Part shown: piece after piece, positions 443 to 58,735 of the stretch
Layout: every line of letters starts with the position of its first letter
Position numbering within the stretch: position 1 is the first letter of the stretch
UHGV virus genome: UHGV-1363177
Source of the DNA: a virus
DNA length: 58,819 nt
Direction: 5' to 3' (one strand)
The notes under the pieces: model-generated
Databases searched by the model: none
The model's input: only the letters and a program-made list of their open reading frames with translations
Told to the model about the DNA's origin: nothing
Position numbers and translations under genes: made by a program

Positions 443-594
443 CCCCGGGGCTAACCGGGGGAAATTCTGGTGTCACTTCGGACATGGTACTATAGGTACT
501 TCGAGAATGAGGAGTTTATTTAAAGTTATTTAATGTATTTTAATTTATTTAAATATAACTTTAATGGCTTTACCTTAGTTATACCTTATTAAAC

Positions 595-660
595 ATTTAA
601 GGGAGTCTTTAAGAGACTCCCTTAAATAGTACATAAGTTAATCCTAATTCTTTCTTTTAA
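595..660. promoter_or_regulatory. Conserved hairpin (14-bp stem, ATTTAAGGGAGTCT/AGACTCCCTTAAAT) followed by the box TTAATCCTAATTCTTTCTTTT; copy 1 of a two-copy element
   Basis: Perfect inverted repeat. A second copy at 43921-43985 has a different but still complementary stem core and shares the CCTAATTCTTTCTT box. Lies downstream of the 3' end of minus-strand CDS 751..1755. Confidence 0.6.
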
Positions 661-750
661 GATTATTTTAAATATATTTTAAATAATTTATTAAATAAAT
701 TTAATTAAAATACTTGACAAATCTTTAAAGGTAACTATAAGTACTATTAG

Positions 751-12435: not shown

Positions 12436-14424
12436 ATGGCACAGATTAGATTTGCTAATAATGTGAGCACTCAGCTTACTAAGCCGGTAGCTGAGAACGA
12501 CTCTACTATTGAAGTTCGCTCTCTCACTCAAGGTCTTGTTTGGCCTAACATTTCTGCTACCGGTGATTACTTTCTTATTATCATTGACGACATTTCTTCT
12601 AGTACTTGGGAGATAATGAAGTGCACTAAGGTACAGGTCAACGGTGCTGCGACTGTTCTTACTGTTGAACGTGGGCTGGAGGGTACTACTGCTACTACCT
12701 TCAATGCTGGTTCGGTAGTTGAGAACAGACTTACCGCCGGTACTCTTGATACCTTTGGAGAAGGCTTTCCTGCCAAGGTTGAGATTAACCGTGGTGGCAC
12801 GGGAGCTACTACTGCTGCTGATGCTCGTACTAATCTTGATGTACCATCTAAGGCTGACCTTTCTTCCGAAGTAAGTACTCGTACTTCTGAAGTTGCTCGT
12901 CTTGACCAGAAGATTATTGACAACATTCCTCCGGCTGCTACTACTGCTGTTCGTGGTACCACTACGCTGAGCAGTGCCGTGGATAGTATTAGTGAAACTC
13001 TTGCTGCTACTCCTAAAGCAGTAAAGACCGCTTATGACAAAGCCGTTGCAGTTGATACTCGATTGACTTCCGAGGTTACTACCCTTGAAGCTGCGGACAC
13101 TGCCACTAATCAGAAGCTTACTTCTGAAGTCTCTAGGCTTGAAGGTGAAATTGCAGCCCATACTCCCCCGGATGCTTCGTTTACTACTAAGGGTATTGTG
13201 CAGCTTAACAGTGCTGTTAATAGTAACAGTGAAGTGCTTGCTGCTACTCCGAAGGCTGTAAAGACTGCTTACGATAAAGCAGTAGCTGCTGCTGCTAAGT
13301 CTGCTTCTGCTGATAAGCTTACTACTGCTCGAAGCATTACTCTTACAGGTCCTGTAACTGGTACTGTTGATTTCGACGGTAGTGCTGATGTTAGTATTCC
13401 TACCACTGTCGTAAGTGCCTCTACTTCTGCTGAGGGTATTGTTCAACTCAGTAGTGCTACGAACAGTACAAGTGAACTTGTAGCTGCTACATCTAAAGCA
13501 GTTAAAGCTGCTTATGATAAAGCTGTTGAAGCTTCTAATAAAGCTGGTCTGCCCCTTGGTCACATCTTTGCTTGGCCTTTCCCTACTGCTCCTGATGGTT
13601 GCATTATTCTAAACGGTAGTACCTACGACCGTACTCTTTATGCTGACTTCTTTGCTTACATTAAGTCTAAGGGTTGGACTAAGACTGAAGCTGAGTGGCA
13701 GAGTATTGCTAAGTCAAACAATGGCTTCTGTCCTTGGTATTCAGAGGGTGACGGAAGTACAACTTTTCGTACTCCTAAGTTTGCTCCATATCAAAAATTA
13801 GCTCTTGCCTCTGGTGATGCTGGTAAATATTATGAGGCTGGATTACCTGATGCCACATTTCCTATTCCTACTACTGCGGTTAATCATACAGTTACAGGTG
13901 GACCCACATACATATATACTGGTCAATATGTAGCGAACCAATCGTTATCTAAAATAAATTCAATCTATGGTAACTCCACAACAGTTCGACCAGAATCACA
14001 TGATTGGGTTGTATGTGTAGTAGCTTTTGGTACTGCTACTAATGTAGGTTCTGTAGACGTTGCTAATGTAATGTCTGCTGTTAGTCAGGTACAAGCTAAT
14101 CCTAATCTTCAGGGCACTGCACATATTGTAGAAACTTGGAAGTCTAACGATGGAACGTCTTGGTATCGTAAGTGGAGTGATGGTTTTATTGAGCAGGGGC
14201 AAAGTGACATTACCGTTACGGAATCGTCGATGACAATAACATTCAACAAACCTTTCACTTATTCAACGTATCAACTTATTACAGAGGCACATGATGTCAC
14301 GTCAAAATCTTTTGGTGAAGGTGTTTCCATCGAAACAAAAAACACAACTGGGTTTGTTTGCCACGGTCATAATTCCTGCACTATAGCATTTATTACTGCT
14401 GATTGGTACGCCTGTGGATATTAA
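12436..14424 (+). CDS. Tail fibre protein (662 aa) with lambda-Stf/T-even-type 'phage tail fibre repeats'
   Basis: Three copies of (G)IVQL(N/S)SA(V/T)NS(N/T)SE(V/L)LAATPKAVK(T/A)AYDKAV; shares an N-terminal roughly 100-aa domain (FANN.ST...VENRLTAG) with the ORFs at 16690, 17391 and 18800. Confidence 0.8.
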   Translation: MAQIRFANNVSTQLTKPVAENDSTIEVRSLTQGLVWPNISATGDYFLIIIDDISSSTWEIMKCTKVQVNGAATVLTVERGLEGTTATTFNAGSVVENRLTAGTLDTFGEGFPAKVEINRGGTGATTAADARTNLDVPSKADLSSEVSTRTSEVARLDQKIIDNIPPAATTAVRGTTTLSSAVDSISETLAATPKAVKTAYDKAVAVDTRLTSEVTTLEAADTATNQKLTSEVSRLEGEIAAHTPPDASFTTKGIVQLNSAVNSNSEVLAATPKAVKTAYDKAVAAAAKSASADKLTTARSITLTGPVTGTVDFDGSADVSIPTTVVSASTSAEGIVQLSSATNSTSELVAATSKAVKAAYDKAVEASNKAGLPLGHIFAWPFPTAPDGCIILNGSTYDRTLYADFFAYIKSKGWTKTEAEWQSIAKSNNGFCPWYSEGDGSTTFRTPKFAPYQKLALASGDAGKYYEAGLPDATFPIPTTAVNHTVTGGPTYIYTGQYVANQSLSKINSIYGNSTTVRPESHDWVVCVVAFGTATNVGSVDVANVMSAVSQVQANPNLQGTAHIVETWKSNDGTSWYRKWSDGFIEQGQSDITVTESSMTITFNKPFTYSTYQLITEAHDVTSKSFGEGVSIETKNTTGFVCHGHNSCTIAFITADWYACGY

Positions 14425-23638: not shown

Positions 23639-26600
23639 ATGGCTGGTTCCTTTACTGAATATTTGACTAATAGCTATGACCCCACTTCAGCGATGATAGG
23701 GACTTGGCTTGAACAGCAGGCTGTTAACCGTGCTATTGCTCGTGCTGAGATGGAAAAACTTTATCAGCAGAGACTTGCTGTCCAAGCTGCTCAGGCTAAA
23801 TCTAATCCGTATCTTGACTATCTTAGAGCACAGGCTGCTGCTGGTGTTACTCCCGGTACAGGCATGGCTCCTGTATATGGAGATGCCCCCACTCCTGCTG
23901 AAGCTCCCGGAGTTTGGGACCAATTCTTGAATCGTGCTGTTCCCCAGTCTCTTGCTGGTCTTGCTGGTGGTGTCGGTCTACTCGGTGACCTTATTGGTGC
24001 TGATTCTGTTCGAGACTGGGGTCTTGAAACCTCTCAATATTTCAACAACATCGCTGCACAAACTCCTCGAACTGTTGCTAGTCTCGAAGATGTTCTTTCT
24101 GGTAAAGGTGACTTCTCTACTTGGTTGAAAGAGAGTGCTATCGACCTTGCTCCTGACCTGATAGGTACCATTGCTACTGGTGGTACTGGTGGTCTTGCTG
24201 CCCGTGGCGGTGCTGCTCTTGCTGCTAGGGTTGCTGGAAAGGAACTGGCCGAGGGTGCTGCCAAGAAGGCTCTTCAGCGTGGTGCTCTTGCTGGTGCCTA
24301 CGGCTACGGAGTTGGAGCTGAAGGTGGTCAGGCTTACCTTACTGACGTAGAACGTCACGGTGTCGAAGGTACATCTCCTTGGATGGACCTCACCACAGGT
24401 GCTGTTGCTAGTGCTTTTGACCTTGCTGGTCCTGCCGGTGGTCTTGTTCTTAAAGCTCTTGGCCGTCCTGTCTCTAAGGCTGCTAGTGAAAAACTTCTCA
24501 GGACCCTTGCTTCTGAGAAGACTAGGACTGCTTTCCTTAAAGGTCTGGGTAAAGGTGCTCTTGCTGAGGGTGGTACTGAGTCCCTTCAGGAACTTACCCA
24601 TATTATCAATGAACAGCTCCAAAGTCCTGAGCTTGAATTTACTCCTCAGGATATCATGCGTCTGGTTGAATCTGGTCTTCTTGGTAGTATCTTTGGTGCT
24701 CCTATTGGTGCTGTCTCTAGGGTCCGCGCTAAGCAGCAGGCTCCTGCTCAGCTCAAGGCTCTTCTTGCCAATCAGTCTACTAGAGACACTTCTGATATAT
24801 CTGCTTCTCGATATGCTGAAGAACGCAAGGCTGCTCAGGACTATCTTGCTAATCTTCCTTCTAATCCTGCTCCTTTCGATAGCACTGTAGATTCTTTCTA
24901 CAATCGAACTCCTTCTGTGTCTAGTCCTATTGGGGAATACTATGCACAGAACTTTGATAAGCTCGATAACTTCTACAGTGACTTCGAGCAGAAGATGAAG
25001 ACTCCTTCTGAAGCTACTGCTGAAGCTGCTACGAGGCTGCGTACTTCTATGCGAAATGCTGCTGCACAGACTCAGCGACAGCTTAGTGAAGAAAGCACTA
25101 GACTGAATGCTGAAGCACAGACTCTTACAAATCAGCTTGCTAAACTGTCTAGCAAGCCTCCTCGTAACGTTACTCCTGAACAGCAGCGGGCATTGATTGC
25201 TGACCTTAACAAGCAGCTCGTTGCTAACAGGGCTGCTCAGGTCAGACTTCAGGAAGGTGCTAAAGAACGTGTTAGTTCTATTCAGCAGACTCTTGCTAAG
25301 GAAGAAAAGAAACTGGCTAACAAGCTGATGAATGACACTATCATCACGGACCAGTCTGGTCTGGCTCGTGATCCCTTCGGTGCCTCTCAGCTTATCCAGA
25401 TTCGTGGTGGAGCTAAAGCTCTGTTTGATAAGCAAGCTGCTGCTGTGCGAGAACGTCTCAATAAAGTTTCTGCTCAGCTTAGCCTTGCCGAACGTAGAAG
25501 TAAAAGCTCTCAAGCTACCCGCAGCATGGCACTTGCTAAGTTACTCGATGACCAGATTGCTGCTGGCAAGAAGGAACGTAATGAGCTTATCAAGCGTCTT
25601 CAGAAGATGAATGGTGCACTGGCTCGTATCGAAGCGGGTACTAACAATCTTGCTACTACTCAGTACACCGTTGACCAAGCTTACGTAGACTTGCAGGACA
25701 TCTACGACGGTGGTGTCATTGACACACCTACTCGTTCTGAAAAAGTTCTGTACGACACTCTGCGTAAAAGTCTTGATAATGTTGAAAAGAAAAGACGTGC
25801 TGAAGAACTGAAAGCTCGTACTGCTGCTCGTAGAGCTAAACGTCCTGATACTGTTACTGACTTTGACAAGACTCCAGATACCTTCTACAACAGAGAAGCT
25901 TCTGTAATTCCCAGTGCTACTCCTTTCGAAACTTCTGTTGATAGCTTCCTTTCTGGTACACCCTCTGTACAAGCTAATAACGTTCTTCAGTTAGCGCTTA
26001 CTGAAGGTCAAGCTAATCTTCCTGCTGTGTCTGAAGCTATCCCGATGGGTACTACGGACACCGGTGTTGATACCATTGCTCTTAACGCAGAGGGTGAGAC
26101 TATCCCTGTAGGTCCCGGTCGTGAACAGCTCATGCTTCCTGAAGGTGGTCAGGACTTTGACAGAACTCCTGACAGCTTCTACGGAACCACTCCCGAAGTC
26201 AAAGGCTTTGTTGAAAGTAATCCTGAAATTAAGAGTCCTATGATTTCTAGGTTCCCCGAAGCTGTGGATGCTTTCTACAACTACACGCCTGACATTGTGG
26301 AAGGTACGTGGCTGATGACTGATGCCACTACTAGACCTACGAAAGCTAAGTCTCCTAAGGAATCTGCTAAGCTTACTCCTAAAGACAAGAGCAATCTTGA
26401 TGTTACTAGAGCAATAGCTGATGAGGACTATAAGCAGGCTGTTGAAGATGTCCGACACGCTGCTATTAGACTTGAATCTACTAGCAAGAATGTTGATAAA
26501 AAGTCTTGGACTAAGAAACTTAATGACGGTCTTGTTAAAGCAAAGCAGGCTCTCAATAAGCTCCTTAATCTGAACATTGAACAGCTTCGTACTAATGCTG

Positions 26601-29600
26601 ACACCTCTAGTAAAAAGCTAGTTACTCAGGGTATTACACCGTCCCTTGAGATGCTTCCTCTGCTTTCTCACAACGTCACTATTGTTGACAGTGTGGATGT
26701 TCCCGAAGCTGCTGGCAGAACTGGTTACATTACTCGTGACCAGAAGATTTATCTTGTTGCAGATAACATTGTTGCTGAAGCTAAACAGCGTAAAAAGTCT
26801 GTCAAAGAAATAGCTACTCGTACTCTTGTGCATGAAGGTCTTGCTCACTATGGTCTTCGTGCCATTATGAGCCCTGCGGAACTCGGTAACTTCCTGCACG
26901 ATTTCAGGAGGAAGTTCGAGAATACTCCTACTTGGAAACGAGCTGCTGCTTCTATTCCTGAGTTTGACCAGCTCAATAAAAGACAGCAGGCTGAAGAAGT
27001 CTTTGCTAAACTTTCCGAACGTCACAAGATTAACAATCTTCTTGAGTCCCGCAATCTGGCAAAGGGTTATCTGAACAGTTTCATTAAGAAACTTGACAGC
27101 AAACTGGGACTGACTGACCTTACCCTTGATGATGTTAAGTCACTTCTTACTGTAGCTGCTGACAGACTGTCTATGGAATCTGCTGGTCAGGGTGCTGCTG
27201 ACATTGGAGCACATTATAGAACCATTCCTCAGACTGGTCTTGCTCGTTCTCTTGACCCCAACCTTGAATCTATGACCCGTGTTGAACGTGCTGAGGCTGA
27301 GGCGGCTCAGCGATTCCCTTTTTCTAACAGAGTTCAAGAGGTAGTAGCTAATAGAGAAAACACTGTCGAATACCTTCGAGAAGGTTTGATTGATAGCTTC
27401 CGTCCTGTTGAACGAATGATTCAAGCTGTTAAGGACTTGGGAAAGAAAGCTGATAACAAAGCTCGTGTCACTTGGGACACTAACGTCTACAAGCTTAGCC
27501 AGCATCTTTCCAGTCAGCAAGCTCTTGCACTTCAACAGTACAAGACCAACTTTGTTGACCCGCTTGTTGACCTTATCAGTGACACAGCCCTTCCGGGTGA
27601 AGACTACAGAGTAACCTTTGCTCGTGTATCTGACTATGTTGAAGCTGTTGCTGCCTATGAGCGTAACGACTTCGGAGCTAAGAAGGGTCTTGACTTCCCC
27701 CTCGTTCCGGGTAAGAAGGGTACATCTCTTCAGGAAAGTCAGGACTACTTCCGCAGTGTCATCAACAAGTACAGCTCTGAGTCCATGAACAAGGTAATGG
27801 ACCAACTCCAGAAGATTAACAATGAGCGTCTTCGTCTACTCGAAGAAAAGAAGATTATCCCGAAGGAAGTCATTGATAACTGGAGAGCTACGTACAAGTA
27901 CTACATGCCCTTCAAGAGTTGGGAGAATGTGGTACAGGAACTTGACCCCGCTTGGTACAACAGCAACACTCGTCGGTCTTTGTCTACTCCTAACGTTCAG
28001 AAGAAGATAATGAAGCGAGCTACTGGTCGTGAAGGTGAAGCTCAGAATCCTATTCTGCACTCCATCCTTCAGCTCTATGATGTGAGTAACCTTTCTCGTA
28101 CTGTTGACATTGGTCGTTCTCTTCTGAGACTTGTTCGTAACAATCCTGACGCTACTAGTATCTTCGAAATGGTAGAGTACAGAGATAAGAATGACAAAGA
28201 CTGGGGTAAACCTAGACTCACTACTGACCCTGAAACTGGTGAGCAAGTCTACGTTGTTGACCACGGTGCTATGAAACGTGTAGTCAACAAACAGACTGGT
28301 GACATCTCTCTTGTGCCTACTAAGCACACTGCCGAAGGTGAAATGAAAAACACTGTGGCAGTTATTGATGAGGATGGTACTGTACAGAGGGTGTTACTAC
28401 ATGACAGTGGTGTGGCTAGAGCTCTTAGAGCTGAGAACATTACTAGAGCTTCTGGTGTTGTTCGAGCTATTGGTGCTATCCAACACGAGCTTGGAAAGTA
28501 CATGACTTCTCGAAATCCTTTGTTCTGGATTACCAACCCCATTCGAGATACCGTGTCTGCTGCTATTAACATCAGCGCACTGAGTCAGGAACTTGAAGCC
28601 CTTGGCATTCCTAACTCCAAGGAAATCTCTCAGTCCATTCTGGTCAACGGTCTTGGTAAGACACTTACTAAGAACAGTGTTCGTAATGCTCTTATGTACT
28701 TCCGTAAGTACGGCACCTTCAATGATGTAACCATTAAGAATAAGGATGGTTCTACTAAGACTATCAAGTCTGGTCTCAGTGATGAGATGAAGATGTTCAT
28801 GAGTGACTACGAACAGTACTTGAACTACGGCGGACAGACTGAATACTTTGGAACGAACACTTATGAAACGTTAAGGAAAGACATCTTGTCTGCACTGAAG
28901 GACAAGAATCCCAAAACGTTTCTTGAAAAGCAACGTAGTAACATCAATAAAATGATGGAGTACATGGATGAGGTGAGTAACTCTCTCGAAAACATGACTC
29001 GTTACATTGCTTTCAAAGAAATCGTAGACCGCCTTAAGCCTTACGCTGAAGCCGGTAGGACTGCTGACGGTAGACCTTTCAGCTACGAAGAAATGTACAG
29101 TCGAGCTGCTAACATTGCCCTCAACCTTACTGTGAACTTCTCTCGAAAAGGTAGCTGGGCTCCTATTTTCAACTCTCTGTACATGTTCGCTAGTGCTAGC
29201 ATTGGTGGTAACGTTCGTATGCTGGAGACTATCTTCCGTAAGGACAGAAAAACTGGCAAGACTGACTGGAATCACGTAGCTAGATTCGCTATGTATCCCA
29301 TGCTGGGTTACGCTCTGCAAGCTATCATTGCTCGTGCTCTCATGGGTGACGATGATGATGGTGTCAGCTTCTATGATAAGATTCCTGAATACATCAAAGC
29401 TAGTAACATCATCCTTCCTAATCCTTTTAGTAAGGGTGACTATATCACTATCCCGATTACTTATGGTTTCGACATGTTCTGGAACCTTGCTATGAACATC
29501 TTCGAAGCTGGTCACAGTGCTGCTTACGGCAACCCCGGCCCCAACGCTACGGAAGCTGCTTCCTCTATCATTGGTAAGATGTTCAACAACTTCGCAACCA

Positions 29601-30310
29601 TTGGTGGTACTGATGAAGGCTGGACTGCTTTTGTTCCCAGCATTATTCGTCCTCTGTGGCAGTTGTCTATGAACAAGAACTTTGCAGGTAATCCTATTAT
29701 GCCTACCGGCAATGAGAACCTGCGAGGTGAAATCCCTGACCATGAAAAGTATTGGAGCACAGCCAACCCCAGTCTTGTGTGGCTGACTAAAGCTCTCTCT
29801 CCCATCATTGATGTCTCTCCCGAAAGTGTTGAACACATTGCTAACGCCTACCTCGGTGGCCTTGGACGTATTACCTTTGGTCTCCTTGGTAGAGTTGACG
29901 AATGGGCTCGCTATGGGTTAGACCACATTGATGTGGGTAAAGTGCCCGGTCTTAAAGTTCTGTACAAGACTACTCAGGACAGTGACACCAGTGCTATGTT
30001 CTCGAAGATGAGAACTAATGTACTCACTCAGATTAACGCAGTTGACACTGCTCGAACTGACATGAGACTCACTCCTGAAGAAAAGAGAGCTGTACTGATG
30101 GATAATCTCCAAGGCTACAGGCTCAAGCCTACCTTGAATAAACTTCAGCAACAGCTTAACCTGCTTCGAGAACAAGAGCGTAAGTTAATGAACAATCCCT
30201 CCATTTCTTCTGACACCAAGGCTACACGTCTTGACCAGATAAACCAACTCAAGCAACGTGCTATGAAGCAGTTCATTAAATCTGCTAATCAAGCTGGTGT
30301 GATTGGTTAA
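23639..30310 (+). CDS. Giant internal virion/ejection protein (2223 aa)
   Basis: 6.7-kb ORF at the end of the virion module (analogous position to T7 gp16). Ala/Gly-rich low-complexity N-terminus, long coiled-coil stretches, HEGLAH motif near residue 1060. No polymerase motifs recognised. Confidence 0.7.
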   Translation: MAGSFTEYLTNSYDPTSAMIGTWLEQQAVNRAIARAEMEKLYQQRLAVQAAQAKSNPYLDYLRAQAAAGVTPGTGMAPVYGDAPTPAEAPGVWDQFLNRAVPQSLAGLAGGVGLLGDLIGADSVRDWGLETSQYFNNIAAQTPRTVASLEDVLSGKGDFSTWLKESAIDLAPDLIGTIATGGTGGLAARGGAALAARVAGKELAEGAAKKALQRGALAGAYGYGVGAEGGQAYLTDVERHGVEGTSPWMDLTTGAVASAFDLAGPAGGLVLKALGRPVSKAASEKLLRTLASEKTRTAFLKGLGKGALAEGGTESLQELTHIINEQLQSPELEFTPQDIMRLVESGLLGSIFGAPIGAVSRVRAKQQAPAQLKALLANQSTRDTSDISASRYAEERKAAQDYLANLPSNPAPFDSTVDSFYNRTPSVSSPIGEYYAQNFDKLDNFYSDFEQKMKTPSEATAEAATRLRTSMRNAAAQTQRQLSEESTRLNAEAQTLTNQLAKLSSKPPRNVTPEQQRALIADLNKQLVANRAAQVRLQEGAKERVSSIQQTLAKEEKKLANKLMNDTIITDQSGLARDPFGASQLIQIRGGAKALFDKQAAAVRERLNKVSAQLSLAERRSKSSQATRSMALAKLLDDQIAAGKKERNELIKRLQKMNGALARIEAGTNNLATTQYTVDQAYVDLQDIYDGGVIDTPTRSEKVLYDTLRKSLDNVEKKRRAEELKARTAARRAKRPDTVTDFDKTPDTFYNREASVIPSATPFETSVDSFLSGTPSVQANNVLQLALTEGQANLPAVSEAIPMGTTDTGVDTIALNAEGETIPVGPGREQLMLPEGGQDFDRTPDSFYGTTPEVKGFVESNPEIKSPMISRFPEAVDAFYNYTPDIVEGTWLMTDATTRPTKAKSPKESAKLTPKDKSNLDVTRAIADEDYKQAVEDVRHAAIRLESTSKNVDKKSWTKKLNDGLVKAKQALNKLLNLNIEQLRTNADTSSKKLVTQGITPSLEMLPLLSHNVTIVDSVDVPEAAGRTGYITRDQKIYLVADNIVAEAKQRKKSVKEIATRTLVHEGLAHYGLRAIMSPAELGNFLHDFRRKFENTPTWKRAAASIPEFDQLNKRQQAEEVFAKLSERHKINNLLESRNLAKGYLNSFIKKLDSKLGLTDLTLDDVKSLLTVAADRLSMESAGQGAADIGAHYRTIPQTGLARSLDPNLESMTRVERAEAEAAQRFPFSNRVQEVVANRENTVEYLREGLIDSFRPVERMIQAVKDLGKKADNKARVTWDTNVYKLSQHLSSQQALALQQYKTNFVDPLVDLISDTALPGEDYRVTFARVSDYVEAVAAYERNDFGAKKGLDFPLVPGKKGTSLQESQDYFRSVINKYSSESMNKVMDQLQKINNERLRLLEEKKIIPKEVIDNWRATYKYYMPFKSWENVVQELDPAWYNSNTRRSLSTPNVQKKIMKRATGREGEAQNPILHSILQLYDVSNLSRTVDIGRSLLRLVRNNPDATSIFEMVEYRDKNDKDWGKPRLTTDPETGEQVYVVDHGAMKRVVNKQTGDISLVPTKHTAEGEMKNTVAVIDEDGTVQRVLLHDSGVARALRAENITRASGVVRAIGAIQHELGKYMTSRNPLFWITNPIRDTVSAAINISALSQELEALGIPNSKEISQSILVNGLGKTLTKNSVRNALMYFRKYGTFNDVTIKNKDGSTKTIKSGLSDEMKMFMSDYEQYLNYGGQTEYFGTNTYETLRKDILSALKDKNPKTFLEKQRSNINKMMEYMDEVSNSLENMTRYIAFKEIVDRLKPYAEAGRTADGRPFSYEEMYSRAANIALNLTVNFSRKGSWAPIFNSLYMFASASIGGNVRMLETIFRKDRKTGKTDWNHVARFAMYPMLGYALQAIIARALMGDDDDGVSFYDKIPEYIKASNIILPNPFSKGDYITIPITYGFDMFWNLAMNIFEAGHSAAYGNPGPNATEAASSIIGKMFNNFATIGGTDEGWTAFVPSIIRPLWQLSMNKNFAGNPIMPTGNENLRGEIPDHEKYWSTANPSLVWLTKALSPIIDVSPESVEHIANAYLGGLGRITFGLLGRVDEWARYGLDHIDVGKVPGLKVLYKTTQDSDTSAMFSKMRTNVLTQINAVDTARTDMRLTPEEKRAVLMDNLQGYRLKPTLNKLQQQLNLLREQERKLMNNPSISSDTKATRLDQINQLKQRAMKQFIKSANQAGVIG

Positions 30311-30805: not shown

Positions 30806-30845
30806 AAGCCCCTGTAAGCGATGAAACTTACAGGGGCTAACTGTT
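30806..30845 (+). terminator. Rho-independent terminator of the late operon (GCCCCTGTAAG...CTTACAGGGGC)
   Basis: 11-bp stem, A-tract before and T-rich after; 30 nt downstream of the stop at 30779. Confidence 0.7.
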
Positions 30846-30913
30846 TATATAGGTTACTTAAAAACGTTGCTTAGCATCAATCCTCGTGTGATTTTAGGGT
30901 ACATAAAACAATA

Positions 30914-30955
30914 AGGGCCATCTGCCTTGCTGTCGCCTTTAGCAAAGTAGATGGC
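30914..30955. terminator. Hairpin GGGCCATCT...AGATGGCCC in the convergence zone
   Basis: 9-bp stem with a large loop, between the convergent operons. Confidence 0.4.
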
Positions 30956-31159
30956 CCCTATTGGTTGGAGGGTTAGTGTTTCCTTTACGAAGTGCATGTC
31001 TGTTCTTTAAAAGGTACGCAAGCTCGAATGTACCCAAGAACCACTCCGCAAGTGGAAGGGGACAATAGGAAGAGAGGTAGTTATGTCCCTGTACCCAGTA
31101 CGATTACGCACTAAATATATAATACTTCGAGAAAGAGTGTCAAGTAAAATTTGTACTCC

Positions 31160-42484: not shown

Positions 42485-43810
42485 TTAAGGTCCAAGACAA
42501 AGGGGCTTGGAATAAGTATAGTCACTACCAAGCTCATTGTAAATAGGCTCGGAGTATCTTGCACGAGTGGGGTCAAAGGTTACCTCAATCTTAGCGTGCA
42601 TACCTGTGCCAAGTTTGTTCTTGCAAAGGTGCAAGTACCGTAAGTTCTCTTGGTCAGTGTGCATGTCATCAAGCTTCTTCCCGATGCCAATGATGTAGTC
42701 AAACTCACCGGGCTTAAGTGTCTTACTACCATCAAGGTCAGAAGGCATAAGCCACTTCTTATTCTCTGCTGTTACAGATGCCTGACCAACTGTGATAATG
42801 TGCACATCAAACTTCTTAGCTAGTTCTCGAAGCTTAGCATAGATAGCTTGAAGACGTTGGACATCTCCCATCTTTGCCATGCCTTTGAAGTGCAGCTTAT
42901 CTGCTTGGTCAATCACGCACACACGCACGTTGTACGTTTCGAACAGAGCTTTAATGTCATCAACGTCGATGATGGCTTCATCGAAGAGGTGAAGCTTCTC
43001 ACCACCCAGACGTTGGAACTCTTCCTTACACTTGTCTGTGTGAGTCTCTAGGATTTCTTGGGGAACATTGAGGAGGGATTGATAGAAGCGAGCCATAAGT
43101 TTTTCTCCATCTTCTTCGTTGTTAAGATGAAGAAGGATTTCACCCTCTTTGAGTTGGCTAATCCAGAACGACTCTTCGGAGAAAAGAAAGGATGTCTTCC
43201 CTGTGTCGGGACGAGCGAAGATGTGGCCAAGAGTCTTACCTCGAATTTCACCAAGGTGCTCATTAAGGCCAGAGATGCGCCACAAAAGGCCGGGCTTTTC
43301 TTTCTTCTTTGCAACCAGTTCGGAAATGTCTGTAGTTACAAAGTTAAAGTTTTTCTTTTGAAGACGCAGCTTCAAGTTTCCGTACTGTTCACACAAATCG
43401 GAAACAGAATCAAGTACACCAGCAGAATTATCCTCAAGAGATTCGGAAATCTTAAAGAGGATTTCACTACTGAAATACTTTTCAAGTATACTATTAAAGT
43501 TCTCTTCAACCAGTTCGGAATTGAGATTGATTTCCCCAAGCTTCTCGAACAAGGTAGAAAAGATGTTCCTCTTGCGAACGAGAGGATTACGCATACTGTT
43601 GTAAAGCAATAGCTCCTCAACTTCGATGACATCCTTGCTAGGATATTCTTTGAAGTATTCTTCAATGGACTTAAGCAATAGCTCAGTCTCAGGTTCGAAG
43701 TTTAGCTCTTTTACATAGAAGCTGTACTTGTCGAAGTGCTCGCGCACAAGCAGGAACTTTATGAGGGTGAGTTCCTGCACGAGTTCGGAAGGAGAATTTT
43801 GTTCGGACAT
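42485..43810 (-). CDS. DnaB-like replicative helicase (T7 gp4 helicase-domain type, no primase domain)
   Basis: Walker A GHIFARPDTGKTSFL; RecA-like DnaB C-terminal domain; 441 aa. Confidence 0.8.
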   Translation of the reverse strand: MSEQNSPSELVQELTLIKFLLVREHFDKYSFYVKELNFEPETELLLKSIEEYFKEYPSKDVIEVEELLLYNSMRNPLVRKRNIFSTLFEKLGEINLNSELVEENFNSILEKYFSSEILFKISESLEDNSAGVLDSVSDLCEQYGNLKLRLQKKNFNFVTTDISELVAKKKEKPGLLWRISGLNEHLGEIRGKTLGHIFARPDTGKTSFLFSEESFWISQLKEGEILLHLNNEEDGEKLMARFYQSLLNVPQEILETHTDKCKEEFQRLGGEKLHLFDEAIIDVDDIKALFETYNVRVCVIDQADKLHFKGMAKMGDVQRLQAIYAKLRELAKKFDVHIITVGQASVTAENKKWLMPSDLDGSKTLKPGEFDYIIGIGKKLDDMHTDQENLRYLHLCKNKLGTGMHAKIEVTFDPTRARYSEPIYNELGSDYTYSKPLCLGP

Positions 43811-43920
43811 AATTTAGTACCATCAAAGTAAGGCTAAAGTTTTCTTTAAGCTTCCTTTAAGGTAAATCATTTTAGTTTAATGTAAATACCTTTAAAGAAA
43901 CTTTAGAGAACTTTACTCAC

Positions 43921-43985
43921 ATTTAAGGAGGCCCCTTAAAGGGCCTCCTTAAATATTAACCTAATTCTCCTAATTCTTTCTTCTA
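43921..43985. promoter_or_regulatory. Second copy of the conserved hairpin (ATTTAAGGAGGCCC/GGGCCTCCTTAAAT, 14-bp stem) plus the box TTAACCTAATTCTCCTAATTCTTTCTT
   Basis: Same architecture as 595-660 with compensatory stem changes; in the 295-bp AT-rich intergenic region upstream of the helicase, which also holds TATATTATATTATATAATATATA and several CTTTAAAG palindromes. Confidence 0.6.
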
Positions 43986-44105
43986 TAGCACTTTAAAGGT
44001 TTACTTTAATATATATTATATTATATAATATATACATCAAAGTAATTCTTTAAAGTACCATAAAGGAAGGAGCTCAGAAACTTGGACTATTCTCGAACTC
44101 CTTCC

Positions 44106-56425: not shown

Positions 56426-56502
56426 ACGTCATTCCTCCGTGTGACATTGTTGATAAAAGACCTACCTTACAAGTGTTCTAAAGAGCGATTGTCTTTAGTC
56501 CA

Positions 56503-56541
56503 ACAAAAAAGGCCACGAACCTTTTTACAGTTCGTGGCCTC
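56503..56541 (-). terminator. Rho-independent terminator (GGCCACGAAC...GTTCGTGGCC, T6 run on the minus strand)
   Basis: 10-bp stem flanked by A6 on the plus strand (U6 on the minus strand); insulates the early operon from upstream transcription. Confidence 0.7.
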
Positions 56542-57607
56542 AATGTTGTACCAAACGGCACATGTTCCAAAGTATTCAGTCGTTCGCCTTTAGCTCCAGC
56601 CTAGCCGTTACGTTTCCTCGCGACTACCTTGACCATAGCAAAGGCTATATTTTCATCGGAAGAGCCTTTATTCCACTACGTCACCTCGTGGCCTGATTCG
56701 CTTCACTTGTTTTGTACCGGCAAGCCTTTGGAAAACTTGCGCCAAGTGTCAGGGGTATCGCCCTTCCGGCAGTATATACTTTGGACGCTTGTCCTTTTCC
56801 GTCTTTATTGGAGTTACCTTGCGCGTAATTACACAAGGTAAGACCTCACAGCACACGCACACAAGCCACAAGGGCTGGGCAGGCTGCGGAAAGCATACTC
56901 ATATCGTCTTTGCCCGCTTTTCTCTACGGGGGCGTGCTGTTCACACATCAGTACACGCTTGTCCATCAACGCGTAGGGAATGCCCTACTTGGCTTTGAAT
57001 GGGGAGCCTTGCCCCGTTGGATTGACCTTGCCAGCTTTCCGCTAGATTGTCAATTCTTTTTTTCAAAGTTCCGAAAAATTTTTCGGCCCTTTGAAAGCGC
57101 CTTGTGAGGGAAGACCCTCACTAGGCAGATTCAGACTAGGGCATTTTGCTGTACCTTGTCAATCTTTTTTTGAGATTTGACAAACAGGCTTGGCACTATG
57201 CCTGCCCTCTCGTGAGGGCTGCTAGCAGGCTTTCAGGGAATGCCCCGAACGCAAGCCCAGACTGCCGGAATGCTGGCATGATGTCAATGACTTTTCCGAA
57301 AAATTTTTATATTTTTATCTTCAATAATTTCAGGTACTTATGCATATGCCTAGAATCTTTTTTAAAAGTTCAATGATTCCAGCTAGTTACGCTTTCCCTG
57401 TCGTGCTTATATGTAACGCGTGCGCGCATACATGTGCGGGCATATGAGTGAAAATGTGCTACATGCCTCAAAATGAGCCACAAAGGGCCTTAGAATCGCT
57501 GAAAGGGCTTTTTCCATATCATTGCCTAGCTTTTCCCTTTTCGTGGCTTATAAGCCCCATTCTGTCCCATTTTGGAGCATGTGGGGCTTTTCATAGGCAA
57601 CAAAAAA
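56542..57607. promoter_or_regulatory. About 1.07-kb ORF-poor regulatory/origin-like region with palindromes and iterated motifs
   Basis: Contains the CCGAAAAATTTTTCGG palindrome (57071-57086) and TTGTCAAT(T/C)CTTTTTTT repeated at about 57040 and 57160, the second embedded in an inverted repeat. Also GGGAATGCCC repeats, ACGCGTGCGCGCATACATGTGCGGGCATATG, and multiple short hairpins. Only spurious ORFs of 76 aa or less. Confidence 0.5.
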
Positions 57608-57645
57608 GCCCCCTTGCGATTGCTCACGAGGGGGCTTTGTTTTGC
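57608..57645. terminator. Bidirectional rho-independent terminator (GCCCCCTTGCG...CGAGGGGGC with T-tracts on both strands)
   Basis: Stem flanked by A6 upstream and TTTGTTTT downstream on the plus strand; 12 nt from the stop of 57658..58317. Confidence 0.75.
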
Positions 57646-57657
57646 TAACTGCTTGTT

Positions 57658-58597: not shown

Positions 58598-58682
58598 TGT
58601 CAGTTCCTTGGGTTTAAGAGTTACTATCTAATAGCCATTGCCTGATATGGATTAGACTACTTTTTTCTTCCGTTGGCAAGCC

Positions 58683-58735
58683 CCTTTTTGAAAAATTTTT
58701 CTTCAATTATTTCAAGTACTTGTGAATGACTGTTA
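58683..58735. promoter_or_regulatory. Repeat of the GAAAAATTTTT...TCTTCAAT(T/A)ATTTCA(A/G)GTACTT box also present at 57296-57345
   Basis: 35-nt near-identical motif in two intergenic positions about 1.4 kb apart. Confidence 0.45.

Follow-up and report, generated by a model that had tools for sequence, protein, structure and literature searches.

The stretch of DNA analysed here, the 58,819-nt virus genome UHGV-1363177, is referred to throughout as the window; it is a complete circular podophage genome assembly from a human gut metagenome, and the element under study is a long perfect hairpin that occurs in it twice, on the minus strand, as copy 1 (595..627) and copy 2 (43921..43954). The pairing of the hairpins survives the turnover of their sequence, their loops are free, and their position is fixed at two boundaries of transcription units, features that, at the level of sequence, point to a structure-specific and loop-independent role. 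Most likely they mark ordinary transcript ends (or an origin-like DNA location) and are not a new kind of signal. The reading preferred here, with somewhat less than even confidence, is that the hairpins act in the gene-sense (minus-strand) RNA, where they would form the 3′ ends of transcripts at unit boundaries or protect such ends. An earlier note on this DNA had taken the pairing to be under selection, and this core inference holds.

Copy 1 consists of a perfect 14-bp stem with a 5-nt loop (ATTTAAGGGAGTCT-TTAAG-AGACTCCCTTAAAT), and copy 2 of a perfect 14-bp stem with a 6-nt loop (ATTTAAGGAGGCCC-CTTAAA-GGGCCTCCTTAAAT). Both lie where the earlier note had placed them, and their stem bases, ATTTAAGG and CCTTAAAT, are identical. 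Six central stem positions had been said to differ, every change being compensated; the compensation is complete (4/4), but the differing positions are four of the six (GAGTCT in copy 1 vs AGGCCC in copy 2). In the gene-sense RNA one pair (U.G) is added to copy 1, and copy 2 has 15-17 pairs, U.G included. The pattern ATTTAAGG..CCTTAAAT occurs twice in the window vs 0 times in 100 shuffles, and perfect hairpins whose stem has 9 bp or more, with 4 or more G/C, number three in the whole window, two of them being copies 1 and 2. The folding energy of each copy lies between -24 and -28.5 kcal/mol, which relative to shuffles corresponds to z-scores from -4.7 to -6.4. Moreover, the covariance-model search that had been proposed was run with a model of 12 family members and picked out the two copies and no other site in the window; their E-values are 1e-8 to 1e-11, and the match ranked after them has E>2.

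As for the setting of the two copies, the late genes lie on the plus strand from 1789 to 30779 and encode the large terminase (TerL), an SU10-type portal, capsid, adaptor, tail fibre and a 2223-aa LPD38 virion protein. The early genes lie on the minus strand from 58597 down to 44106 and are small and of unassigned function, a primase among them; they are followed on the same strand by the genes for a DnaB-type helicase (43810-42485), a family-A DNA polymerase (PolA), an exonuclease and others, to about 31.1 kb. ORF334 is a stand-alone minus-strand gene (751-1755), and a noncoding region of 972 nt separates its stop (751) from the first early gene (58597). A MEGAHIT k127 contig carrying the ORF334 protein is 58,946 nt long, that is, 58,819 nt plus a 127-nt overlap; in it the window end (58819) is continuous with the window start, so the genome is circular. 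The copies, described earlier as 43 kb apart, are so in the linear view only: on the circular assembly they are 15.5 kb apart by the short way round and bracket the early-gene block. That both copies sit 3′ of a minus-strand gene was read correctly, the upstream minus-strand ORF ending 123 nt (copy 1) and 151 nt (copy 2) before the hairpin, and copy 2 is followed 110 nt downstream by the DnaB-type helicase gene.

Relatives were fetched as a graded series via helicase and TerL homologues. In close relatives (97-99% helicase identity) copy 2 is retained, and its stem stays intact while loops and flanks mutate, the loops coming in four variants among five sequences. Even the 'invariant' stem base can change in a compensated way, since L447, a 98% relative, has a G-C to A-T change there, its copy 2 carrying ATTTAAGA..TCTTAAAT. 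In the set with 72-77% helicase identity, the copy-2 position holds AGGGAACCCC-GTAA-GGGGTTCCCT in L207 and TTTTAAAGGAGCCCC-(TTTAG or CTAAA)-GGGGCTCCTTTAAAA in L208 and L445. At the copy-1 position, a long hairpin is found in L290, L291, L443, L468 and L470; its stem sequences are unrelated between genomes, and in gene sense a GTACCTATAG-type motif always follows it at a distance of 63-100 nt. L443 and L468 differ by a compensated A-T to G-C change. In the alignment of 12 sequences, 91.5% of cells are paired and 11 of the 15 pairs have changed on both sides, which none of 500 shuffles equals, the covariation statistic being partly circular because the stems were defined from the same palindromes. 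With compensated hairpins at both positions in relatives, the claim that structure is conserved over sequence is borne out.

The conservation has its bounds. L206 and L444 keep the AT-rich island of copy 2 and have no copy-2 hairpin; in L444 a canonical hairpin plus T-run terminator stands at the early-operon end in its place. Judged from these two sequences, copy 2 is dispensable. The 12-member covariance model found no sites in the relatives beyond those already known and had no matches in distant relatives (helicase ≤57%, TerL ≤65% identity), some of which have no AT-rich island ahead of the helicase gene at all. Two scans by sequence were uninformative: that of IMG/VR with ATTTAAGG..CCTTAAAT was unspecific (more than 120 matches, one of them relevant), and that with the 15-mer GTGTCCATCGGGGTG of the conserved G/C block gave chance matches only. 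Within genomes the two copies tend to resemble each other: those of the window share box and stem base, the L207 and L291 copies are one compensated pair apart, and L208 and L468 have the GC core in common. The window's stem cores are nonetheless nearer to their positional counterparts elsewhere, copy 1 to L290 and copy 2 to L208, and within-genome likeness together with positional core likeness would therefore reflect a mix of orthology and exchange between copies.

How hairpins at these places would make transcript ends can be set out in steps, all of which we infer. Copy 1 would follow the ORF334 message, and copy 2 the 14.5-kb early operon, ahead of the helicase-polymerase operon; in each case the nascent transcript would fold a very stable stem-loop. 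RNA polymerase might then be released, inefficiently, in the A/U-rich tract at and after the stem base, that is, by weak and probably factor-assisted termination; or RNase III might cut read-through RNA in the stem, or 3′ exonucleases might trim it back to the stem. The outcome would be a stable 3′ end, by which early expression would be uncoupled from middle expression and the noncoding origin-like region shielded from read-through. The helicase operon would restart from its own promoter-like site, 25 nt downstream of copy 2 and within the 110-nt spacer, for which the candidate is a sigma-70-like site (TTTAAA-16-TAAAAT, 43869..43896, minus strand, 9/12 matches) between hairpin 2 and the helicase gene. 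The likeness of the two copies would be due to duplication or gene conversion between the AT-rich islands, and their perfect symmetry and loop flips to hairpin-templated mutation in DNA.

Transcript ends are preferred because both copies are intergenic and lie 3′ of minus-strand ORFs at the distances given, because a promoter-like site and then the helicase gene follow copy 2, and because pairing is conserved with different stems and the covariation is strong. A loop free in sequence and orientation is what a terminator, barrier or RNase III hairpin would be expected to have, and the canonical terminator that replaces copy 2 in L444 amounts to a functional substitution. In addition, the conserved U.G pair of W-type copies is gained in the gene-sense RNA only and is counted on the same side.

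Among known elements, the nearest in kind are terminator-like hairpins between cistrons, hairpins of the RNase III type and the palindromes of origins. With rho-independent terminators, the bidirectional and NusA/NusG-assisted ones included, the copies share a stable, GC-rich intergenic stem-loop 3′ of genes, a weak A-U stem base, a loop whose sequence is irrelevant, a GC core seen in the terminator-like hairpins of unrelated phages, and a relative's canonical terminator at the same boundary. The GC core, AAGGGAGTCT..AGACTCCCTT, is present in about 14 unrelated viral contigs, and since it is mostly flanked there by A- and T-tracts it is a terminator-type sequence, which again favours transcript ends. 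Stems of 14-21 bp are, however, long for terminators. So is the weak base: six consecutive A-U pairs are found here vs 2-4 in the NusG-dependent terminators of B. subtilis. Terminators of this bacterium with an A-U/G-U stem base and an interrupted U-tract have been published as working with NusG/NusA (PMC8060035), and this precedent also speaks for the preferred reading.

RNase III would offer another way to the same end. The bacterial enzyme needs a stem of at least about 11 bp, the ideal being about 22 bp (PMC3867540). Stems of 14-21 bp exceed this minimum, which counts for transcript ends; in paired positions, the family has 10-21 and the window copies 15-17. Like the T7 R-sites and those of SP82 early RNA, the hairpins are long stems between cistrons, with conserved structure, free loops and sites that are similar within a genome, and the replication module of helicase, PolA and exonuclease is T7-like, an endonuclease I homologue having been seen in the relative L206. 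T7 RNase III sites typically have an internal loop; the stems here are perfectly paired, they fall short of the 22-bp ideal, and each genome has no more than two such sites.

Several observations weigh against transcript ends. The U-tract of a canonical terminator, about 7-9 nt on the 3′ side of the stem, is absent from both strands of the window copies (gene-sense tails GTTTAATAA and GTGAGTAAA, plus-sense tails AGTACATAA and ATTAACCTA) and from the hairpin versions of all relatives, and a d'Aubenton-Carafa-type discriminant scores the hairpins at -3 to -51 vs positive values for canonical terminators of the same genome. A canonical intrinsic terminator was accordingly rejected, and the statement that the element is not a generic intrinsic terminator stands. 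The phage does use canonical hairpin plus T-run terminators elsewhere in its genome, for example at 443-460 and 56505-56540. L468 and L443 carry other terminator-like hairpins between the ORF334 homologue and the long hairpin, so that the latter looks redundant as a terminator. Furthermore, the stems contain 222 Watson-Crick vs 14 G.U pairs, nearly all of the G.U pairs being terminal, and neither folding energies nor G.U pairs show a consistent bias between gene sense and antisense; such Watson-Crick purity without strand bias would fit a constraint on DNA, or on both strands, at least as well. Finally, the hairpins lie within helically phased repeat arrays beside replication genes.

This last point leads to the islands in which the hairpins sit. 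The two most AT-rich islands of the genome, 315-776 and 43795-44097, contain one hairpin copy each. Between genes, island A extends over 486..750, from the ORF334 stop (751) to a pseudo-start (485), with copy 1 and motifs of the TTTAAAG and GTAC-TATAG types, and island B over 43811..44105, from the stop of the last early ORF (44106) to the helicase start (43810), with copy 2 and a (TA)-rich tract. The palindromic TTTAAAG-type motif (CTTTAAAG) occurs about 8-12 times per 280 nt in the islands vs 1.2 times per kb elsewhere in the window, a density roughly 30 times that of the rest of the genome, and its spacing is mostly 10-13 nt, about one helical turn. In island B there are about 8 such sites (12 overlapping pattern matches), mostly 11-13 nt apart. 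Arrays of the motif were noted in the window islands and in L206, L207, L208, L444, L445, L290 and L291.

The main rival reading, distinctly less probable, is that the hairpins act at the level of DNA, as part of one or two replication origins, with the palindromes extruding as cruciforms or folding as single-strand hairpins. They would then aid unwinding or helicase/primase loading, or bind a structure-specific phage protein, within AT-rich iteron-like arrays; island B would be an origin in the replication module, and island A a second origin or a cis-site by the long noncoding region. The placement of both copies in these islands, with their dense phased motifs and (TA)-rich tracts, supports this, as do the position of island B between the primase and helicase-PolA genes and the abutment of island A on a set of repeats: a tandem array with an 8-nt AT unit, iteron-like repeats of 11/22 nt and a large inverted repeat whose arms measure 40 nt. 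So do the almost wholly Watson-Crick stems with their equal folding on both strands and flipping loops. The islands thus have the AT-rich DNA with helically phased short repeats beside replication genes that characterises an iteron-type origin. Two-site origins with repeat arrays are known from phages, namely SPP1 oriL/oriR and P4 ori/crr, and the primary origin of T7 consists of promoters and an AT-rich region; the window resembles these in its two separated AT-rich arrays of phased repeats, one of them in the replication module, and in the lineage specificity of the repeats. In the distant relative L151/L295 the islands share a different palindromic motif of the TACTTAAGTAT type, and this lineage-specific replacement suggests co-evolution with a phage-encoded binding protein.

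The origins of SPP1, P4 and T7 are, however, not defined by a GC-cored perfect hairpin. The repeat array of island B is kept in L206 and L444 although their hairpin is missing, and the turnover of the stem sequence is complete, leaving no conserved site for a sequence-specific initiator; nor was an initiator protein recognised among the proteins scanned, here and below 30 window proteins searched against Pfam and PHROGs. The minimum of the cumulative GC skew falls near the window start, as an origin there would have it, but GC skew is confounded with gene orientation. The loop flips and the perfect symmetry can, moreover, be purely mutational, arising by template switching.

The flips themselves are plain: the loops of L208 and L445 (TTTAG/CTAAA) and those of the window and L124 (CTTAAA/TTTAAG) are exact reverse complements, although the relatives in each pair are near-identical. 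Such loops are inversions, which are typical of hairpin-templated mutation in DNA. Carried to its end, this gives a rather unlikely account in which the element has no selected function, the palindromes arising and staying symmetric by hairpin-templated repair or template switching in AT-rich spacer DNA and being copied between the islands by recombination. Loop flips and slippage of loop length in the 97-99% relatives show that palindrome-specific mutation is active, copy 2 can be lost, and the neighbouring box is unconserved. On the other hand, six genomes, with TerL identities reaching down to 65%, have kept a long hairpin at 63-100 nt from the GTAC-TATAG motif although its sequence has turned over completely; the AT islands hold no perfect long hairpins of this sort besides these, and the stems remain intact while loops and flanks mutate.

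The box is a 14-nt sequence, CCTAATTCTTTCTT, with exactly two occurrences in the window, at 643-656 and 43969-43982; any other match in the window needs 3 mismatches, which is the background level. On the minus strand, box copy 1 (643..656) reads AAGAAAGAATTAGG in gene sense and lies 15 nt 5′ of hairpin 1, and box copy 2 (43969-43982) lies 14 nt 5′ of hairpin 2 as part of a feature spanning 43960..43982, in which a partial tandem duplicate of the box, CCTAATTCT, occupies 43960-43968 at copy 2 only. The earlier note was right that the box follows both hairpins on the strand as presented, but not that it does so within 10 nt, since it starts 15 and 14 nt after them. The two loci thus share a module longer than the earlier note had it, which in gene sense consists of the box, a gap of 14/15 nt, the hairpin, an AT-rich stretch of 109/110 nt and, last, ATGTCCGAA. 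After copy 2 the ATG of this last sequence is the start of the helicase gene (43802..43810, minus strand, 110 nt downstream of hairpin 2, with no clear Shine-Dalgarno sequence); after copy 1 it opens no real gene.

On this module rests an unlikely interpretation in which box and hairpin are a factor-read site, an operator or a nut-like or put-like antitermination signal, by which the switch from early to middle expression, as well as read-through at the 443-460 terminator, would be controlled. The order of box, 14/15-nt spacer and hairpin in both copies is in keeping with it, as are the canonical terminator after copy 1, the helicase operon after copy 2 and the sharing of sequence between the copies of one genome (the window; L207/L291; L208/L468). 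Lambda nut and HK022 put also have two copies per genome, a box at fixed spacing before a hairpin and differences between copies that preserve pairing. The box, however, is confined to the window's species-level lineage, varies within it (2 substitutions in L122, a 98% relative) and is absent from the hairpin-bearing L207, L291, L208, L290, L443 and L468; the spacing of 14 and 15 nt holds for the two window copies, and the box is not a conserved partner of the hairpin.

The loop, with four variants among five sequences and flips between window and L124 and between L208 and L445, is not the conserved loop of a nut site; its hypervariability and flipping speak against recognition through the loop, as known from nut-boxB and N4 promoters. 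Copy 2 stands at the end of a 14.5-kb operon and copy 1 follows a 1-kb gene, and neither is promoter-proximal as nut and put sites are. The stem of lambda boxB has 5 bp and put RNA consists of two stem-loops, adjacent, promoter-proximal and about 65-70 nt in all; here the 14-bp hairpin stands alone. Among the scanned proteins none was recognisable as a regulator, N-like, Q-like or other, and Rfam gave no match at gathering score over the whole window, with only sub-threshold, miRNA-like noise around the copies. A nut- or put-type site was therefore rejected on the free loop, the lineage-specific box, the distance from promoters and the single stem.

A promoter does lie beside copy 1, on the other strand. 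This sigma-70-like sequence (TTGACA-N16-TATAAG, then TACT; 714..741, plus strand) reads antisense into ORF334, towards the late genes, and as a TTGACA-N16-TATA promoter it is kept in the window, L290, L291, L443, L468 and L470; at 486-500 the -10/start motif, GGTA(A)CTATA(A/G)GTACT, is directly repeated, there without a -35. The least probable of the readings weighed here is that the hairpins serve on the plus strand, in the leader of rightward (late) transcripts that begin at the TTGACA-N16/17-TATA promoter conserved in island A, where they might, for example, stabilise the RNA, make the polymerase pause or act as an attenuator. In L443, L468 and L470, where the promoter is on the far side of the hairpin from ORF334, it stands 63-86 nt plus about 20-35 nt upstream of the copy-1 orthologue, which would put the hairpin at about +70 to +100 of the transcript, and folding is just as good in plus sense. 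In the window, L290 and L291, however, the full promoter is on the ORF334 side, leaving only the -10-like remnant upstream; no comparable plus-strand promoter precedes copy 2, and the plus sense lacks a U-tract as well.

A promoter of another kind was rejected. The hairpin promoters of the N4 virion RNA polymerase have 5-7-bp stems, 3-nt loops and a conserved sequence. The copies resemble them as DNA hairpins in an AT-rich early region with few copies per genome, but differ in their 14-bp stems and free 5-6-nt loops: the stems are too long and the loops variable, and no domain of a virion or other phage RNA polymerase was detected, neither such a polymerase nor a sigma factor being found among the 30 proteins. 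The suggestion of a phage-specific promoter is weakened by this. K-mer counting in the window brought up no widely repeated phage promoter motif, and TATAGTAC and related motifs show no significant genome-wide enrichment. A telomere-resolution site of a protelomerase, which would be a long perfect palindrome of tens of bp, was likewise rejected, the palindromes here being 33-34 nt with a loop; no protelomerase was among the family-search matches of the proteins scanned, not every ORF having been scanned. What is left from the earlier proposals, an RNase III site, a terminator or antiterminator and a replication signal, is inseparable by sequence alone.

Around the hairpins, further features were recorded. 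Downstream of hairpin 1 (gene sense), GAAGTACCTATAGTACC and then ATGTCCGAA occupy 477..502 on the minus strand, the motif starting at 92 nt and the ATG at 109 nt; the ATGTCCGAA at 477-485 repeats the first 9 nt of the helicase gene and has no Shine-Dalgarno sequence. Directly after this pseudo-start lies a canonical intrinsic terminator (443..460, minus strand), CCCCGG-TTAGCC-CCGGGG followed by TATTTTTATA. The two together represent either a short noncoding transcript or a decayed duplicate of the helicase 5′ region. In L290 this stretch has a unique counterpart of about 170 nt with a canonical terminator at its end, which could be the gene of a small RNA. Shine-Dalgarno sequences precede most genes in the window; the helicase gene is without one in the window (43811-43840) and in L207 (9970-10003), where GGTA(T)CTA(T)AATTATG is found, and the helicase genes of L206, L208 and L444 do have one. 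At the other end of island B, directly after the stop of the last early ORF, an inverted repeat, GGAAGGAG..CTCCTTCC, then TTTATGG (44065..44105, minus strand), is by its sequence a second terminator-like hairpin at the early-operon boundary.

The long noncoding region next to island A contains four features, which together span 46-115, 181-262, 263-330 and 345-442: iteron-like 11/22-nt repeats (CAGTCATTATGCAGTCAAATAG, 3.2 copies), an inverted repeat with 40-nt arms that are 80% complementary, a G/C-rich block ending in CCCCCTCCCCC (gene sense) with varied versions in L290, L291, L468 and L295, and, after the terminator 460-443 in gene sense, a tandem array with an 8-nt AT unit (ATATAAAA, 12.4 copies). 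As a group, these features have the look of an origin or a packaging region. At the start of the early region, promoter-like blocks (GAAAAATTTTT..TTCAATAATTTCAGGTACTT) are repeated at 57290-57345 and 58680-58735, a palindrome, TTCCGAAAAATTTTTCGG, lies at 57061-57096, and about 1.2 kb (56430-57650) carries many GC-rich hairpins and no convincing ORF. The junction where late (plus) and middle (minus) genes converge has two long hairpins, 30807-30838 and 30906-30966, with T-rich tails on the minus-strand side only, and the late operon is without a canonical plus-strand terminator.

Among the late genes, that of the 2223-aa virion-module protein (23639-30310, plus strand) encodes an LPD38 domain near the C-terminus, no polymerase domain having been found in it, and Gly-rich repeats with a 9-nt period occur near its 5′ end and in the gene before it. 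At 12966-13539 (plus strand), the tail-fibre gene contains three diverged direct repeats of about 240 nt each (Phage_fiber_2 repeats). The window TerL has 472 aa and no LAGLIDADG insertion; some relatives (P0087, P0107, P0118, P0124; L468 1-1385) have an 800-aa TerL with a LAGLIDADG (PF14528) insertion, which is probably an intein. No tRNA or tmRNA gene was found in the window.

As to kinship, a 10-kb part of the window, compared by megablast with 50,697 GenBank phages, had no match, and tblastn with PolA found relatives at ≤33% identity only; by these comparisons there is no closely related cultured phage, the nearest standing at about 33% PolA identity. L470 and L475 give a weak hint, and a hint only, of the host: the closest genome-collection match, at 65% TerL identity, is a whole phage contig of 60,355 nt binned with a Desulfovibrionaceae genome, and a relative at 39% is a prophage match inside a 1.88-Mb Desulfovibrionaceae contig. 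In two clades of this phage family, many of the contigs in the catalogue are about 43 kb long and begin 3-250 nt upstream of the helicase gene (L121-L123, L125, L126, L134, L136, L145 and L150; IMG/VR 3300045988) and, where checked, stop just past ORF334, so that they break in both AT-rich islands and the early block is absent. Low coverage, strain-variable early genes or provirus trimming are possible causes. Physical genome ends and a long exact repeat were rejected as explanations, the break points being variable and no long repeat being shared.

The hairpins and the AT-rich repeat islands are the clearest cis-acting landmarks of this genome: they mark the boundaries of the early module and coincide with the sites at which many contigs of the catalogue are broken, leaving pieces of about 43 kb. 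Podophages of this family, 58-62 kb in length, recur in human-gut assemblies, with 72 (helicase) and 87 (ORF334) members in 90%-identity clusters. If the hairpins form transcript ends or are processed there, they are ordinary, yet useful for annotating transcription units. It is also conceivable, though improbable, that they are paired cis-sites of a phage-encoded system, delimiting the 15.5-kb early module and evolving in concert within each genome; to the same low degree they might be, for example, twin origins or insulators read by a structure-specific or co-evolving phage protein and coupling the early-to-middle switch to the initiation of replication. Were this true, a widespread family of gut podophages, as yet uncultured, would have a control architecture that has not been described before, and origin or insulator sites read by a phage protein would provide a testable handle on the early-to-middle switch in this uncultured family.

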